Source: an uncultured Solibacteraceae bacterium
GTDB taxonomy: Bacteria > Acidobacteriota > Vicinamibacteria > Vicinamibacterales > SCN-69-37
Direction of reading: 5' to 3'
DNA length: 64,000 nt
Assembly: GCA_964423815.1 (NCBI GenBank)
Contig: CAYRGW010000003.1
Span: 45,731-109,730, forward strand
Notes under the pieces: model-generated
What the model was told of the DNA's origin: nothing
What the model saw: the letters and a program-made list of their open reading frames with translations, nothing else
The model's database searches: none
Shown here: piece by piece, positions 6,542 to 11,539 of the stretch
Position numbering within the stretch: position 1 is the first letter of the stretch
Layout: each line of letters opens with the position of its first letter
Translations under genes and position numbers: made by a program

Positions 6542-8071
6542 GTGCCAACCACACTCGGCAACTCTGCGTTTCTCAGTTTTTTCCAGGGCCTGCGCGCCGG
6601 TCTGTACATCGGACTGGTGGGCCCGGATGATTCCGCGACGCTTGCAGGCAACCCGTTCCTGCGGCTGATGTTCGGCTGGGAGGATGCACGTCCGACCAGC
6701 GAGGTCCGGCCGTTTGATCCCGACCGCTTCGTTGATTCCCAGGCCCGCGAAGGATTCCTGGCGCTCCTGCGCCGTGACGGTGCCGCGCACGATCACCTGT
6801 TGAGGTTGCGCCGGGCCGATGGCGCCGGCTTCTGGGTGGAAGTGACCGCGCGTGCCGAGGCCGTCGCACCCGATCGTCAGGTGCTGCGCATTGAAGCCGT
6901 CATGCGCGACGTCAGCGAACGCAAAAAACTCGAAGACCAGGCGCGCGACGTCTTTCACCAACTCTCACAGGCGGAAAAACTCGCCTCACTCGGCCAGACC
7001 ATGTCGGGCGTCGCACACGAGCTGAACAATCCCCTTGCGACCATCCTCGCGTGCGCGGAACGGCTCGCCGGCCGACGGCACGACGACCACACACGCCGCG
7101 ATATTGACGCGATTCACAACGCCGCCGAACGCGCCGCGCGCATCGTCCGCAACCTGCAGACGTTTGCGCGCAAGCGGCACACCACACGCACGATGGTGGA
7201 TCTCAATCAGGTCGTCAGGGACACCCTCGCCGTGCGCGCGTATGAACAGCGCGTGTCAAACGTGGCCATCGTGGAAGCGCTCGCCGCAGGCCTGCCGCCG
7301 GTCTTTGCCGATCCCCATCAGATTCAGCAGATCCTCTTGAACCTGGTCATCAACGCCGAACACGCCATGCTCGGCGCGAGCGGCCGGGGCCTCATGGTCC
7401 TGCGGTCCTGGCACGAACCCGATCGTGACGCCGTCCTCATCGAGGTGAGTGACGATGGGCCGGGGGTGCCGGAAGACGTCCAGCAGAAAATCTTTGACCC
7501 GTTTTTTACGACGAAGGCGGTGGGGAAGGGTACGGGGCTTGGATTGACCGTGGCGTACGCGATTGCGCAGGAACACGGCGGCCGGATTTCAGTCAACTCG
7601 CCGCCCGATGGGGGCGCGGCGTTTGTCCTGGAACTGCCGTCGGGCGGCACCGTCGTCAAGCCGCCGGAGGTCGCTGTCGCGGCGCCCGCCCCCGAGACCG
7701 TTCCCGTGGGTACACGGGCGCTGGTGGTGGAGGATGAACTGGCGCTCGGCGAAGCCGTGGCGGATGCCCTGCGCGACGCCGGGTTCGAGGTCGATCGCGC
7801 GCACGATGGGGAAGAGGCCATCGCGCGCACACAGGTGCGCGCCTACGATGTGATTGTGTGTGACCTGAAGATGCCGCGTGTGGACGGTATGCAGTTCTTT
7901 ACGCATCTGGCGACCACGGCGCCGGCACTCACACGACGGTTGGTGTTTGTGACCGGCGATGTGGCCGGCACCGAGGCCGAGCAGTTCCTCGAACGCAGCG
8001 GCTGTCGTTGGCTCGCCAAACCGTTCCGACTGCGCGACCTCGTGCGCACGGCCCGGGAGTTGATTAGGTAG
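6542..8071 (+). CDS. Cytoplasmic hybrid sensor histidine kinase (PAS - DHp/HisKA - HATPase - receiver)
   Basis: 509 aa with no TM segments. It has a PAS-like N-terminus, the H-box MSGVAHELNNPLATILACAERL, the N/G boxes ..LLNLVINAEHAM.. / ..DDGPGVP.. / ..GTGLGLTV.., and a C-terminal REC domain (..ALVVEDE..DVIVCDLKMPRVDG..KPF). Confidence 0.9.
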   Translation: MPTTLGNSAFLSFFQGLRAGLYIGLVGPDDSATLAGNPFLRLMFGWEDARPTSEVRPFDPDRFVDSQAREGFLALLRRDGAAHDHLLRLRRADGAGFWVEVTARAEAVAPDRQVLRIEAVMRDVSERKKLEDQARDVFHQLSQAEKLASLGQTMSGVAHELNNPLATILACAERLAGRRHDDHTRRDIDAIHNAAERAARIVRNLQTFARKRHTTRTMVDLNQVVRDTLAVRAYEQRVSNVAIVEALAAGLPPVFADPHQIQQILLNLVINAEHAMLGASGRGLMVLRSWHEPDRDAVLIEVSDDGPGVPEDVQQKIFDPFFTTKAVGKGTGLGLTVAYAIAQEHGGRISVNSPPDGGAAFVLELPSGGTVVKPPEVAVAAPAPETVPVGTRALVVEDELALGEAVADALRDAGFEVDRAHDGEEAIARTQVRAYDVIVCDLKMPRVDGMQFFTHLATTAPALTRRLVFVTGDVAGTEAEQFLERSGCRWLAKPFRLRDLVRTARELIR

Positions 8072-8126: not shown

Positions 8127-8879
8127 CTACGCGACGTTGCGGCGCGGGAAGGGGAGCACCTCGGCGGGCGCCTGGGGCGACATCGCTTTGCGCAGGCGCG
8201 ACATCGCGCGTGCGTGCAGCTGCGAGACGCGTGATTCGTTGACGCCGATCTCCTTGCCAATATCCTTCATCGTCGCCCCACGGAAGTAGTAGAGGCTGAT
8301 GAGTTTGCGTTCGCGCGCCGGCAGAGTGGCCAGTGCCTCGCGGATGCGCGTGCGGAGTTCCTGCTGCTCGTATTCGCTGTCGGGTGACGGCGGCGCGCTC
8401 GGGACCATCACCGCGGGCAGTGACGCGCTGTCAATCGAGTCGAGATTGGCGAGCGGCGAGGTGGATTCGATCGTGGTGATGCGCAGGATGGTGCGTTCGA
8501 GCCGCGCCTCGTCGGTGCCCACTCGTTTGGCCAGATCGGCCAGCGTGGGTTCGGCACCAAGTTCCCGGCGCAACGATTCGCGCGCGGCTTCCAGTTCGCG
8601 GCGGACACGGCGGACGCCGCGCGGCCAGGCATCACGACGCAGCGCGTCAATCATGGCGCCGCGTACGCGGCGTTCGGCAAAGGTCTCGAACTTGATGCCG
8701 CGGCTGTCATCAAACCGGTGGGCCGCATCCATCAAGCCAATCACGCCATCCTGGACAAGGTCCGACACATCAATCGAGTGGGGCATCGTGGAGGCCATCC
8801 TCCGAGCCAGAGACTCGACAAAAGGCAGGGTCGCAACGACCCGTTCGTGTTGGTGACTTGCCAGCTGTGCTCGCGCCAT
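8127..8879 (-). CDS. FliA/WhiG-family (group 3, sigma-28-like) RNA polymerase sigma factor
   Basis: Region 2 reads DLVQDGVIGLMDAAHRFDDSRGIKFETFAERRVRGAMIDALR. The region 4.2 HTH reads ATMKDIGKEIGVNESRVSQLHARAMSRLRK. The ATG at 8879 is preceded by GGAGGGG, so I prefer it; the ORF-track GTG at 8903 is an alternative start. Confidence 0.85.
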   Translation of the reverse strand: MARAQLASHQHERVVATLPFVESLARRMASTMPHSIDVSDLVQDGVIGLMDAAHRFDDSRGIKFETFAERRVRGAMIDALRRDAWPRGVRRVRRELEAARESLRRELGAEPTLADLAKRVGTDEARLERTILRITTIESTSPLANLDSIDSASLPAVMVPSAPPSPDSEYEQQELRTRIREALATLPARERKLISLYYFRGATMKDIGKEIGVNESRVSQLHARAMSRLRKAMSPQAPAEVLPFPRRNVA

Positions 8880-8929
8880 GAACCCCTCCAGAGGGACCGG
8901 CACTCACTGCCAGCCCACCTATCTGAATG

Positions 8930-8944
8930 GCAACATGGGTGCCA
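8930..8944 (-). promoter_or_regulatory. Sigma-54 (-24/-12) promoter TGGCAC-CCATG-TTGC facing the sigma-28-like gene
   Basis: The plus strand at 8930-8944 is GCAACATGGGTGCCA. Its reverse complement is TGGCACCCATGTTGC, an exact GG-N10-GC sigma-54 consensus. It lies about 50-65 nt upstream of the ATG at 8879 on the same strand. Confidence 0.6.
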
Positions 8945-9023
8945 GGTAGATCCAGCGATCACAGGCGCGTCCACACCTTGCTCGTAGTTGGCGAACAAAG
9001 TCTTTGTTTACAGTAATTTAGGC

Positions 9024-9114
9024 GAATTAGTCCGGCGTGAATTAGTGTGCAACCGTGTGCCGAACCGTGAGAAAATGGTCAATCCTATGACAGCCTTGAC
9101 ACCTATAATGTCAA
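9024..9114. promoter_or_regulatory. Cluster of short repeats; candidate enhancer (UAS) region for the sigma-54 promoter
   Basis: GAATTAGT occurs twice (9024-9031, 9039-9046). AACCGTG occurs twice (9051-9057, 9063-9069). There is an inverted repeat TTGACA-N7-TGTCAA at 9096-9114. All lie 80-170 bp upstream of the -24 element on the minus strand. Confidence 0.35.
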
Positions 9115-9362
9115 TGGTTTGACGATTTTACCTGGTTGGCTGCGGCGGCCAGCTGTCGGATTTGGTTGGTGGCCTGGATGGCGTCCAGGACGCTGGCGAC
9201 CACCTGGCCGGCACGGGCGCGGTGCTGTTCTTCAACGAGACGGTGCTCAAGCAACTCGGCGTTGGCCAGGATGATGCCGAGGTGGTTGTTCAGCGTGTGA
9301 AACAGCCCCGTGAGGTCCGTATCGACCCGCGAGGTCTCTGGCGGGTTAGTCATGGTGAACAC
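9111..9362 (-). CDS. Stand-alone DHp (histidine-kinase dimerisation/phosphoacceptor) domain protein, 83 aa, with no ATPase domain
   Basis: The H-box LFHTLNNHLGIILANAELL aligns with the neighbouring kinase's VAHELNNPLATILACAERL at 11 of 17 positions by eye. It is followed by a second predicted helix. The start codon directly abuts the stop of the upstream HTH gene. Confidence 0.6.
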   Translation of the reverse strand: MFTMTNPPETSRVDTDLTGLFHTLNNHLGIILANAELLEHRLVEEQHRARAGQVVASVLDAIQATNQIRQLAAAANQVKSSNH

Positions 9363-9605
9363 CTACGCGCTCTTGTGCAGGTCGTATGAGTGATTGATGG
9401 CACCGAGATCGGCAGGGGGCTGGGCGTCCCTGAAGAGGGTATCGGCGAAGATGCGGACCGAGCCGCCGGCCGTGCGGACATATTGGACCTTGCCGCTGGC
9501 GATCCAGTTATAGATGGTGCGCCGACTGACACCGACCACGTCACACGCGCGAGGAATGGAAACCGTCTTCCGTTCAAGCATACGTTCGGGACTATCGGCG
9601 TGCAC
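9363..9605 (-). CDS. Small excisionase/MerR-like (HTH_17, BldC-like) DNA-binding protein
   Basis: 80 aa, with the motif ..SIPRACDVVGVSRRTIYNWIASGKVQYVRTAGGSVRIFADTLF.., typical of excisionase-family HTH proteins. An alternative start is Met9 at 9581. Confidence 0.7.
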   Translation of the reverse strand: MHADSPERMLERKTVSIPRACDVVGVSRRTIYNWIASGKVQYVRTAGGSVRIFADTLFRDAQPPADLGAINHSYDLHKSA

Positions 9606-9620
9606 TGAGTGAAACTGTAG

Positions 9621-11015
9621 ATGACTCCAGAAGATCCCGCTCCTTTACACCTGTTACTCGTGGAAGACGAGGCCGCGTACCGCGAGGTTGTGGCTGAACG
9701 TCTGACCGAACAGGGGTACAAGGTCGCGCAGGCGAGCACCGGGGAAGAGGCGCTGGAACGGCTGAACGGGTTTGCGTTCGACATTCTGCTGACCGACCTG
9801 CGGCTGCCCGGCGTGGATGGCCGCCAGGTCCTCGACGAGGCCTTTGCGCGGTATCCCGACATCATCGCCGTGGTGATCACCGGGTTTGGCACGGTCAAGG
9901 AAGCGGTTGAAGTGACCCGCCTGGGCGCGGAAGGGTTCATTACCAAACCGTTTCAGTTTGAGGAGTTGGTCCACGTCCTCCAGACGGCAGTCGAGAAACG
10001 CCGGCTCCGCGCGGAAAACGCCTACCTGCGCGAACAGCTCCGCGGGCGGTTTCATCTGGGAGGGATCATTGGTCAGACACCTCCGATCCTCAAGTTGCTG
10101 GAGTTGCTGGAGACGGTGGCCGCCACCAACAGTACGGTGCTCGTGACCGGGGAAACCGGAACCGGCAAGGAGTTGGCGGCGCGGGCGATTCACGATGCCA
10201 GTCCACGACGTATGCAGCGGTTTGTCGCGATCAATTGCAGCGCGATTCCTGAGACACTGCTTGAGGCGGAGTTGTTTGGCCACGTGCGCGGCGCCTTCAC
10301 GGGTGCGATTGCGAACCGGCAGGGCCGGGTCGAGCAGGCCCATCGCGGAACGTTATTCCTGGATGAAGTCGGCACGATGGCGCCGTCGCTGCAGGTGAAG
10401 TTGCTGCGTGTGTTGCAGTCACGTGAGTTTGAGCGTGTGGGTGACTCACAGACGATCAAGGTGGATGTGCGGGTGATCGCCGCCACCAATTCCGATCTGA
10501 AACAGATGGTGGCCGACGGCACGTTCCGTGAAGACCTGTTCTACCGGCTCAACGTCATTCCCGTGCACGTGCCCGCCCTGCGTGATCGGCGCGCGGACGT
10601 GCCGGTGCTGGCGCAGCACTTTCTGGATCGCCTCAGTCGCGACACCCCGGCGCGGGGCCGCGTGTCGATCGCGCAGGATGCCCAGCAGGCGCTGATGGCA
10701 TTTGGGTGGCCGGGCAATGTGCGCCAGCTCGAGAATGTGATGGAGCGCGCCTTTGCCCTGTCGCCAGGGCGCGCGCAGATCGAAGTGGACGACCTGCCGG
10801 ACGAACTGCGGACCCGGTCGGTGGCCACCTCCGCCGACGCGGTGGCGCTGGGCGACGAGGGGATCGAGTTTGATCGCCTGGTCGGCGACTTTGAACGCGA
10901 ATTGATTCGGCGCGCGCTTGATAAAAGCGGCGGCAATAAACGAATGGCGGCAGACCTGCTGCACATCAAGCGCACGACGCTGATTGAGAAATTGAAGAGA
11001 TTGGAGCGACTGTAA
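9621..11015 (+). CDS. Sigma-54-dependent response regulator (NtrC/AtoC family enhancer-binding protein)
   Basis: 464 aa. It has a REC domain (LLLVEDE..DILLTDLRLPGVDG..KPF), an AAA+ domain with Walker A GETGTGKE and the GAFTGA loop, and a C-terminal Fis-type HTH (..GNKRMAADLLHIKRTTLIEKLKR). Confidence 0.92.
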   Translation: MTPEDPAPLHLLLVEDEAAYREVVAERLTEQGYKVAQASTGEEALERLNGFAFDILLTDLRLPGVDGRQVLDEAFARYPDIIAVVITGFGTVKEAVEVTRLGAEGFITKPFQFEELVHVLQTAVEKRRLRAENAYLREQLRGRFHLGGIIGQTPPILKLLELLETVAATNSTVLVTGETGTGKELAARAIHDASPRRMQRFVAINCSAIPETLLEAELFGHVRGAFTGAIANRQGRVEQAHRGTLFLDEVGTMAPSLQVKLLRVLQSREFERVGDSQTIKVDVRVIAATNSDLKQMVADGTFREDLFYRLNVIPVHVPALRDRRADVPVLAQHFLDRLSRDTPARGRVSIAQDAQQALMAFGWPGNVRQLENVMERAFALSPGRAQIEVDDLPDELRTRSVATSADAVALGDEGIEFDRLVGDFERELIRRALDKSGGNKRMAADLLHIKRTTLIEKLKRLERL

Positions 11016-11017
11016 TC

Positions 11018-11539
11018 ATGTCCACCCCCCACCGCTGCTGGGTCATCCTTGTCGGCAACGTGCCCACGTCCTTTCGTGCAAAGGAACGCGAGGACCTGGT
11101 CCCGACGTTTAAACAACTGCAACGCACCCAGCCGGAGGTGACTCTGCGCTGGTTCGAACGGGGCCGGGTGTGGGAGAACCCCGACGCCGCCCGTGCCGCG
11201 TCATTACTCGCGGCTGAGGCCGCCAAGGTCCGCCGCCCCCGGCGTGACCCCGCGCTTGGACCCCCTCGGGGCAAAGAGTGGCGGCCGGGCGGGGAACACA
11301 AAGATCCCCGCGCCAGGTTTGAGCTGACCCGCGATCAGAAACGCGCCAAGTTCAAGCGCAACCTGATCGCCGGCAATGAGTCAGCTGGCGGCAATGACGC
11401 GCCCGACGCGGCTGCGCCCCGCGAAGACGCGGCGCCTCGGTCTGAGCGACCGGTGCGGTCCGAGCGGCCAGCGCCCCGAGCGGACAGGCCCGCGGCGGCT
11501 CCGGCGAAGAAGCGTCCGTCTGGTGATCCGTTCGCTTAA
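11018..11539 (+). CDS. Hypothetical protein; small N-terminal domain plus an Arg/Pro/Ala-rich basic tail
   Basis: 173 aa. The ATG lies 2 nt after the EBP stop, which suggests translational coupling. I recognise no motif in it. The codon pattern is consistent with coding, but the tail is low-complexity. Confidence 0.5.
   Translation: MSTPHRCWVILVGNVPTSFRAKEREDLVPTFKQLQRTQPEVTLRWFERGRVWENPDAARAASLLAAEAAKVRRPRRDPALGPPRGKEWRPGGEHKDPRARFELTRDQKRAKFKRNLIAGNESAGGNDAPDAAAPREDAAPRSERPVRSERPAPRADRPAAAPAKKRPSGDPFA

Follow-up and report, generated by a model that had tools for sequence, protein, structure and literature searches.

A likely sigma-54 promoter upstream of a probably non-flagellar FliA/WhiG-family sigma factor gene in a conserved regulatory module of Vicinamibacterales

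Sigma-factor cascades commit bacteria to large state changes. Little is known about regulation in the Acidobacteriota, which are among the most abundant phyla of soil. In this study, we analyzed a stretch of 64 kilobases (kb), hereafter the window, from an uncultured soil/groundwater acidobacterium of the order Vicinamibacterales (assembly GCA_964423815.1, contig CAYRGW010000003.1). In this window, an apparent sigma-54 promoter faces a gene for a FliA/WhiG-family sigma factor (the window sigma), which belongs to the sigma-28 type. All positions without a contig label are those of the window.

The Rrp2-RpoN-RpoS pathway of Borrelia burgdorferi is a cascade leading from sigma-54 to sigma-S (PMC2940757, PMC3037356). 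The locus in the window has in common with it that an NtrC-type activator and sigma-54 appear to switch on directly, from a nearby -24/-12 promoter, the gene for a further alternative sigma factor. In Borrelia, the promoter of the target sigma gene is also a site of action of BosR, a small DNA-binding protein, and a small helix-turn-helix (HTH) protein is likewise encoded in the module described here. However, the Borrelia target is RpoS and not a member of the FliA/WhiG family, the pathway controls lipoproteins for host adaptation, and the organism belongs to another phylum with another lifestyle. A nested feedback promoter of the sigma-28 type, a protein made of a DHp domain only and a hybrid kinase are not described in the Borrelia pathway. 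In Vibrio cholerae, FlrA and sigma-54 express FliA as a class II gene (PMC6504787), and the shared feature is that a sigma-54-dependent activator turns on a sigma-28 gene. Vibrio fliA belongs to the set of flagellar genes, and its product is restrained by FlgM and drives the flagellins, whereas the window paralogue lies outside the flagellar set and is kept without flagella; its candidate promoters have a spacer one base longer and carry CCGATA, not CCGATTA. The non-flagellated Legionella oakridgensis retains an active FliA that controls non-flagellar genes (PMC5655016). This is a single ancestral FliA with FlgM, left after the loss of flagella. In contrast, the window sigma is a distinct paralogue found order-wide; some genomes have it side by side with the flagellar one, and it is apparently under sigma-54 control.

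Streptomyces WhiG and Bacillus subtilis SigD are FliA/WhiG-family sigma factors that serve development or cell separation, instead of or besides motility. WhiG is under the cyclic di-GMP-dependent anti-sigma factor RsiG and has BldC in its network, and SigD drives autolysins together with flagella. The locus in the window resembles WhiG in that the best solved relative of its sigma factor is WhiG (6pfv) and that the module includes a BldC/Xis-like small HTH protein, although the match to BldC is weak. It resembles SigD with its autolysins in that a peptidoglycan enzyme is a candidate target. The RsiG motif, on the other hand, was not seen in the DHp protein of the window, and sigma-54 control also differs from the WhiG case; to our knowledge, Actinobacteria are without sigma-54. 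Our literature search found no paper linking Acidobacteria, sigma-54 and a FliA/WhiG cascade. Sigma cascades are already known; what is new here is an order-specific sigma-28 paralogue that is probably non-flagellar, that would be controlled by sigma-54 and whose module has a putative feedback promoter nested in it.

Our main conclusion is that the sigma-54 promoter at 8944..8930 probably transcribes this order-specific non-flagellar FliA/WhiG paralogue inside a five-gene kinase-activator module with feedback. We put the probability of this reading at about 0.75. The promoter and the gene that follows it are these:

8930..8944, minus strand: sigma-54 -24/-12 promoter element TGGCACCCATGTTGC, from direct reading and conservation in orthologous loci.
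8885..8889, minus strand: Shine-Dalgarno sequence GGAGG of the sigma gene, from direct reading.
8127..8879, minus strand: gene for a 250-amino-acid FliA/WhiG-family (group 3) sigma factor, a probable non-flagellar paralogue, from TIGR02479 and solved relatives.

On the minus strand, positions 8944 to 8930 read TGGCACCCATGTTGC, with GG at 8943-8942 and GC at 8931-8930. The spacing is exactly GG-N10-GC and both -24/-12 blocks are present, as the first-pass annotation of this DNA had stated. It had also placed the element about 50 to 65 nucleotides (nt) before a GGAGG-led ATG. The sigma-gene ATG at 8879 is indeed 51 nt from the GC and 65 nt from the T of the element, with GGAGG at 8889-8885 between them, and transcription of the sigma gene would start near 8919. 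All ten core positions of TGGCAC-N5-TTGC(A/T) are matched, and TGGCACCCATGTTGC is the sole exact match to the motif in the window.

The first-pass annotation had proposed to judge the element against its genome-wide background. The genome comprises 4.66 Mb at 64% GC in 189 contigs, to which labels such as C20 and C21 refer. It contains 14 exact TGGCAC-N5-TTGC sites, against 4-9 at four wrong spacings; taken alone, the motif match is only mildly unusual. Placement was counted on a crude gene map (3308 genes, 85% coverage), and a site was called well placed when it was intergenic, co-oriented and at most 300 nt from a gene start. Well-placed sites were enriched: 8 had at most one mismatch to TGGCACG-N4-TTGCW, compared with 0-1 at five wrong spacings, and 27 had two mismatches, compared with 4-16. 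The absence of rpoN had been named as a finding that would speak against the promoter, and the gene is present (TIGR02395, 444.5 bits, C24:39646-41037), as it is in 40 of 41 relatives. With rpoN and about 16 activators of sigma-54 encoded, the genome may plausibly have a few dozen sigma-54 promoters in its regulon.

The strongest evidence comes from orthologous loci. The main comparison set consisted of 80 species-level loci, in which the identity of the sigma protein ranges from 97% down to 70%, and a further set consisted of 10 genomes sampled across the order. The pattern TGG-[CT]-A-[CT]-N5-TTGC was found in 80/80 loci, 31-128 nt before the sigma start, and in all ten additional genomes. 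By chance, its six-base core is expected in about 6% of such 240-nt regions, which agrees with the five secondary matches that were seen. When the loci are aligned on the motif, TGG, A and TTGC reach 2 bits at each position, while almost no information is left in the spacer and on either side. Among the 80 loci, the motif stays constant, and the five bases of its spacer change along with the flanking sequence. These invariant blocks with a free spacer are therefore the footprint of a -24/-12 element and not of general sequence conservation. In both sets together, the motif keeps its place and orientation at protein identities down to 65%, where the flanks can no longer be aligned. We regard this comparison across relatives as decisive for the promoter being real, and the promoter is very likely to be functional.

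The downstream gene had been called a FliA/WhiG-type group 3 sigma factor, and our searches support this. The open reading frame (ORF) scores 199.6 bits with TIGR02479 (FliA_WhiG), for which the cut-off is 189.6. Its matches to Sigma70_r2 and r4 are strong and that to r3 is under the cut-off. Among proteins of solved structure, it is closest to Streptomyces WhiG (6pfv, 6e-38) and E. coli FliA (6pmi, 1e-36). Alignments of orthologues begin at ATG 8879 and not at the upstream GTG 8903, and GGAGG or GGAG is kept at the corresponding place in the orthologous leaders.

Although the sigma factor is of the FliA/WhiG type, flagellar genes were not found at its locus. The genome is flagellated, with flhA outside the window contig (C21:4430-6361) and a canonical fliA (227 bits, C21:1869-2531) two kilobases from it. 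Flagellins are encoded on C50 and C130, and FlgM on C130. The window sigma is 39% identical to the canonical C21 fliA product. Flagellar genes, for which the first-pass annotation had suggested a search, thus exist on other contigs, with a fliA of their own. Among 41 relatives from the genus, family and order, 38 encode an orthologue of the window sigma with at least 67% identity; 12 have FlhA and 11 have flagellin. At least 26 relatives carry the window sigma and had no FlhA that we could find, and in several assemblies that are 99-100% complete the sigma is present and neither FlhA nor flagellin was found. In an even set of 151 Acidobacteriota genomes, the orthologue was present in 10/10 genomes of the same order and in 0 of about 140 others. 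By this distribution, the window sigma is a paralogue specific to the order, and it is retained independently of flagella.

Its function is, with good confidence, non-flagellar. The window sigma is a FliA/WhiG member by sequence and, as far as its distribution tells, is not a flagellar sigma factor by function. The earlier suggestion that the cascade may control something other than flagella is strengthened by the separate flagellar contigs and by these relatives. In public databases, the orthologues (proteins P0002-P0121) are annotated as 'RNA polymerase sigma factor for flagellar operon FliA', a name that is probably wrong for the order-specific paralogue. As a separate observation on the flagellar genes, a sigma-54-like site with two mismatches, CGGCACGTCATGTGCA, lies at C130:4473 (minus strand); the predicted ORF containing FlgM (C130:3942-4247) follows about 210 nt downstream. 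Part of the flagellar hierarchy could also be sigma-54 dependent.

The sigma gene has four conserved neighbors:

6542..8071, plus strand: hybrid histidine kinase (HisKA, HATPase_c and REC domains, from Pfam), convergent with the sigma gene.
9111..9353, minus strand: 80-amino-acid stand-alone DHp (H-box) protein, a tentative assignment from the H-box, an alignment to the kinase and a structural model.
9363..9581, minus strand: 72-amino-acid HTH_17 (excisionase/BldC-like) DNA-binding protein, from Pfam and TIGR01764, with its start at ATG 9581.
9621..11015, plus strand: NtrC-family response-regulator enhancer-binding protein (REC, AAA+ with GAFTGA, HTH_8), divergent, from Pfam and its translation.

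When the window proteins were compared with the 80 loci by tblastn, the sigma and the convergent kinase were found in 80/80, the divergent activator in 79/80, the 80-amino-acid protein in 77/80 and the HTH_17 protein in 75/80. As judged by this synteny, the five-gene regulatory module is conserved across the Vicinamibacterales. The HTH protein matches HTH_17 at 4e-8 and TIGR01764 at 6e-9. Its best solved relative is mycobacteriophage Xis (4j2n, 1e-4), matches to BldC (6ama/6amk) are weak, and the orthologues begin with MLERKTVSIP, which fixes its start at ATG 9581.

The activator has 464 amino acids and matches Sigma54_activat (3e-72), Response_reg, AAA_lid_14 and HTH_8. Its translation contains the Walker A sequence GETGTGKE, an intact GAFTGA and DLRLPG. 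It reached the cut-off of no equivalog model and is a member of no named subfamily. The first-pass annotation had reported an NtrC-family activator about 700 base pairs (bp) away; this agrees with a start at 9621, on the opposite strand and 677 bp away. Although the genome encodes roughly 16 such activators, this one adjoins the sigma module in 79/80 loci. It is thus the likely cognate activator of the sigma-54 promoter. Directly behind the activator, 2 nt after its stop codon, begins a 173-amino-acid ORF (11018-11539, plus strand) without a Pfam family. It is detectable at this place in 52/80 loci and may belong to the module.

The DNA between the activator and the HTH gene contains a second promoter:

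9592..9620, minus strand: putative sigma-28-type promoter CTACAG-N16-CCGATAG (CTACAGtttcactcagtgcacgCCGATAG), from direct reading, abutting the activator start codon.

In the genus of the window, the -10 of this promoter ends 10 nt before ATG 9581, and therefore the HTH message would be nearly leaderless. The HTH gene is present in 75 of the relatives' loci, and 71 of these have the pattern [CT]TA[CAT]AG-N16-CCGATA upstream of it with fixed, ungapped spacing. It is also present in relatives without canonical fliA and FlhA. Since the orthologue of the window sigma is the sole FliA-family sigma factor in such genomes, it is the most likely reader of the promoter, and we consider it rather probable that the window sigma reads N16 promoters. 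The first-pass annotation had suggested looking for promoters of the type TAAA-N15-GCCGATAA. Flagellin genes have promoters of this kind: 13 of them, from flagellated relatives, have the form TAAAG-N15-CCGATTAC, and the flagellin loci of the window genome show the same class. The two classes differ consistently in one spacer base and in the fifth base of the -10 (CCGATA versus CCGATTA). This suggests two sigma-28 paralogues with separated promoter specificities.

A strict search of the 41 genomes led, through one match, to a candidate target of the window sigma. The gene for a DD-carboxypeptidase (peptidase S11; C20:34752-35801, minus strand) is preceded by CTGCAG-N16-GCCGATAGT at C20:35872-35898 (minus strand). 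Of 28 relatives examined at the orthologous gene, about 20, belonging to six families, carry the N16 motif upstream of it; every antisense score is low. Weaker evidence, at the level of the genus, points to a cupredoxin-like gene as another candidate. In one relative without a detected sigma orthologue (G026), a strict TACAG-N16-CCGATA in the locus G026:C85:7762-10188 lies 20 nt upstream of a different HTH_17-type protein.

Other matches from this work were set aside. A strict-motif match that recurs in several genomes (C93:16732-16757) is a conserved stretch near the 3' end of the 23S rRNA, which calls for caution in such motif searches. A lytic transglycosylase, an M23-like protein, a bactofilin, a small IWxFxR protein and REC-only regulators were matched in single relatives and are not claimed as targets; their homologues in the window genome are without such a site or absent.

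The following elements were recognized around the sigma-54 promoter:

9078..9114, minus strand: candidate enhancer (upstream activating sequence) with the inverted repeats TTGACA-N7-TGTCAA-N3-TGTCA-N6-TTGAC, from direct reading, beginning on the stop codon of the DHp gene.
9035..9071, minus strand: four direct repeats with an exact 10-bp period (CTCACGG, GGCACAC, TGCACAC, TTCACGC), from direct reading.
8991..9030, minus strand: AT-rich block TAA...N17...TTA, which separates the promoter from the repeats further upstream and may be an IHF-like bend site.
8889..8921, minus strand: possible 5'-leader hairpin with the core GGGCTGGCA-GTGAG-TGCCGGTCC, from folding energy, just upstream of the Shine-Dalgarno sequence.

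The 80 upstream regions were compared by gapped alignment. A block TTGAC-N13-GTCAA-N5/6-TTGAC is conserved in this alignment. Of 78 sigma-upstream regions, 32 contain TGAC-N15/16-GTCA, which lies there 138-175 nt before the -24 element; 32 of 66 spacers between the activator and the HTH gene contain it as well. These shares of about 41-48% compare with 3.7% of random 170-nt segments. One inverted repeat thus occurs in both regulatory regions of the module, which fits autoregulation and enhancer binding by the neighboring activator. The direct repeats (GCACAC, TGCACAC or TTCACAC) are kept in most orthologous loci. Xis/BldC-like proteins bind head-to-tail repeats, and these repeats may be a site for the 72-amino-acid Xis/BldC-like protein or for the activator. 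The TAA and TTA columns of the AT-rich block are also conserved among the 80 loci, and the genome has four genes of the HU/IHF family; a function of the block as a bend site is one that we infer only. The leader hairpin has a minimum free energy of -18.5 kcal/mol in the window (z = -2.06). Most orthologous leaders can form a hairpin of differing sequence, with energies indistinguishable from those of shuffled sequences (mean z -0.49), and support for this feature is weak. In a scan of the minus strand between the DHp gene and the sigma gene, we found no sigma-70-like promoter and no terminator-like site. With regard to the activator-HTH spacer itself, it measures 100-350 nt in most relatives and carries T(A/T)TTTTGACAC and TGAC-N15-18-GTCA; in the window genome and its two closest relatives it is a bare sigma-28-type promoter from which those elements are gone.

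The 80-amino-acid protein is the most ambiguous member of the module. In 25 aligned orthologues, the histidine of its LFH-x-LNN-x-LGIILA-x-AELLE box is invariant, and the box aligns to the phospho-acceptor H-box of the neighboring hybrid kinase (E 7e-5). The predicted structure is a two-helix hairpin with a predicted local distance difference test score of 86. A fold search placed the isolated DHp domain of GacS on top, with an E value (0.31) that is not significant. A role as phosphotransferase is a tentative assignment, and the odds are somewhat against it. All three components of such a phosphorelay, namely a hybrid kinase, a His-box protein and a terminal response regulator, are present and syntenic.

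Several observations weigh against the reading proposed above. TGGCACCCATGTTGC has two mismatches to the 12-position extended consensus TGGCACG-N4-TTGCW, at the flanking G after CAC and the W after TTGC. Matches with at most one mismatch number 4 in the window against 5.8 expected, and whole-genome totals of near-consensus sites at the two-mismatch level are not enriched either. The DHp assignment is built on a short motif, with E values of 0.68 in a profile search against solved structures and 0.31 in the fold search, and alternative roles for the small protein are those of an anti-sigma factor or of a kinase inhibitor. The window genome has two FliA-family sigma factors, either of which could read CCGATA promoters. 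The strict N16 motif has 3 matches in this genome compared with 1-3 in controls, relaxed N16 patterns are no more common there than patterns with other spacings, and a position weight matrix applied to all upstream regions of the genome gave top sense scores below those of antisense controls. In the 41 genomes, the HTH promoter aside, strict matches were about as frequent as those of a reversed-pattern control. The detected regulon is thin and is limited to two or three genes. Finally, the repeats upstream of the promoter are assigned to proteins by nothing but position, symmetry and recurrence.

The alternative that survives best accepts the cascade and changes the sign of its feedback. In this case, the 80-amino-acid protein would be an anti-sigma factor resembling RsiG or FlgM, or a DHp decoy that blocks the kinase as in RetS-GacS. 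The DHp gene directly precedes the sigma gene and, like flgM in many hierarchies, is served by a sigma-28-type promoter (PMC5655016). The two-helix model and the top fold match, to the DHp domain of GacS in its inhibitory complex with RetS, would suit this role, and no other anti-sigma factor was found near the sigma gene. However, LFH-x-LNN-x-L is the phospho-acceptor box of kinases, and its histidine, aligned with that of the neighboring kinase, would be needless for an anti-sigma factor. The RsiG-type motif E-x3-S-x2-R-x3-Q-x3-D was not seen by eye in the DHp alignment. Moreover, phosphorelays in which a hybrid kinase works with a separate receiver-domain activator normally require a His-phosphotransfer step. 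On balance, negative feedback of this kind is unlikely, although it deserves to be taken seriously.

It is much less probable that TGGYAY-N5-TTGC is an operator for some other protein, and that the sigma gene is transcribed by read-through from the sigma-28-type promoter or from a housekeeping promoter that was not recognized. The lack of a terminator-like site between the DHp and sigma genes would permit such read-through, the strongly conserved promoter lies 640 bp upstream, and a simple scan could miss a housekeeping promoter because those of acidobacteria are poorly defined. Nevertheless, an invariant GG and GC at a fixed 10-nt spacing with free bases between them is the pattern of a sigma-54 promoter. 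In addition, rpoN is present in 40/41 relatives and an adjacent GAFTGA activator in 79/80 loci, and enhancer-like repeats and an AT-rich block stand at the classical distances.

A displaced flagellar fliA of a Vibrio-type polar-flagellate hierarchy, transcribed from a real sigma-54 promoter, is more improbable still. The protein passes the FliA/WhiG model, the public names of its orthologues point to the flagellar operon, the genome is flagellated, and sigma-54-dependent fliA expression is known in Vibrio (PMC6504787). However, a better-scoring fliA adjoins flhA on C21 and FlgM is encoded on a flagellar contig. The 26 or more relatives that keep the sigma with no FlhA found include assemblies of 99-100% completeness, and the flagellin promoters (N15, CCGATTAC) are unlike those adjacent to the window sigma (N16, CCGATA). 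A functionless chance match would suit the chance-level counts in the window and the unenriched near-consensus totals of the genome, but the conservation of the motif in 80/80 and 10/10 loci at the same place and in the same orientation refutes it as far as computation allows.

Taking a sigma-54 promoter for the non-flagellar paralogue as the preferred reading, we propose the following mechanism. The hybrid kinase would sense a signal and phosphorylate the receiver domain of the activator. The phosphate may be passed directly or via the DHp-only protein, which would act as a Spo0B/ChpT-like phosphotransferase. The activated protein would bind the inverted repeats of TTGAC/GTCAA, which lie some 140-175 bp before the promoter, loop over the AT-rich bend site and drive, with ATP, the opening of the sigma-54 closed complex at TGGCAC-N5-TTGC. 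The new sigma factor would guide RNA polymerase to TA(C/A)AG-N16-CCGATA promoters. Because no terminator was detected after the DHp gene, transcription from the HTH/DHp-gene promoter may read on into the sigma gene, which would constitute feedback on the module. The DD-carboxypeptidase gene (C20:34752-35801) would be a further output, and the output as a whole is likely to be cell-envelope remodeling rather than motility. All of the binding and phosphotransfer steps are ones that we infer from the sequences, and so is the pairing of sigma factors with promoters in a genome that has two paralogues.

The locus appears to form a complete, order-conserved circuit with a sensor kinase, an activator, a sigma-54 promoter, a second sigma factor, a feedback promoter and at least one output gene. 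The label 'sigma factor for flagellar operon' is probably misleading for hundreds of genomes. More speculatively, and with the odds against it, the module may be an order-wide, self-reinforcing switch of developmental type, in which a phosphorelay acts through sigma-54 on a sigma-28 paralogue with its own promoter grammar and, by feeding back on the small regulators of the module, commits the cell to remodeling of its wall. If this is true, the grammar, with a spacer one base longer and CCGATA in place of CCGATTA, would insulate the paralogue from the flagellar sigma-28, and the wall-remodeling program might serve, for example, cell separation, a change of shape or a resting state. Two sigma-28 paralogues in one cell, apparently separated by one spacer base and one base of the -10, would offer a clean case in which to study the divergence of promoter specificity that follows gene duplication.

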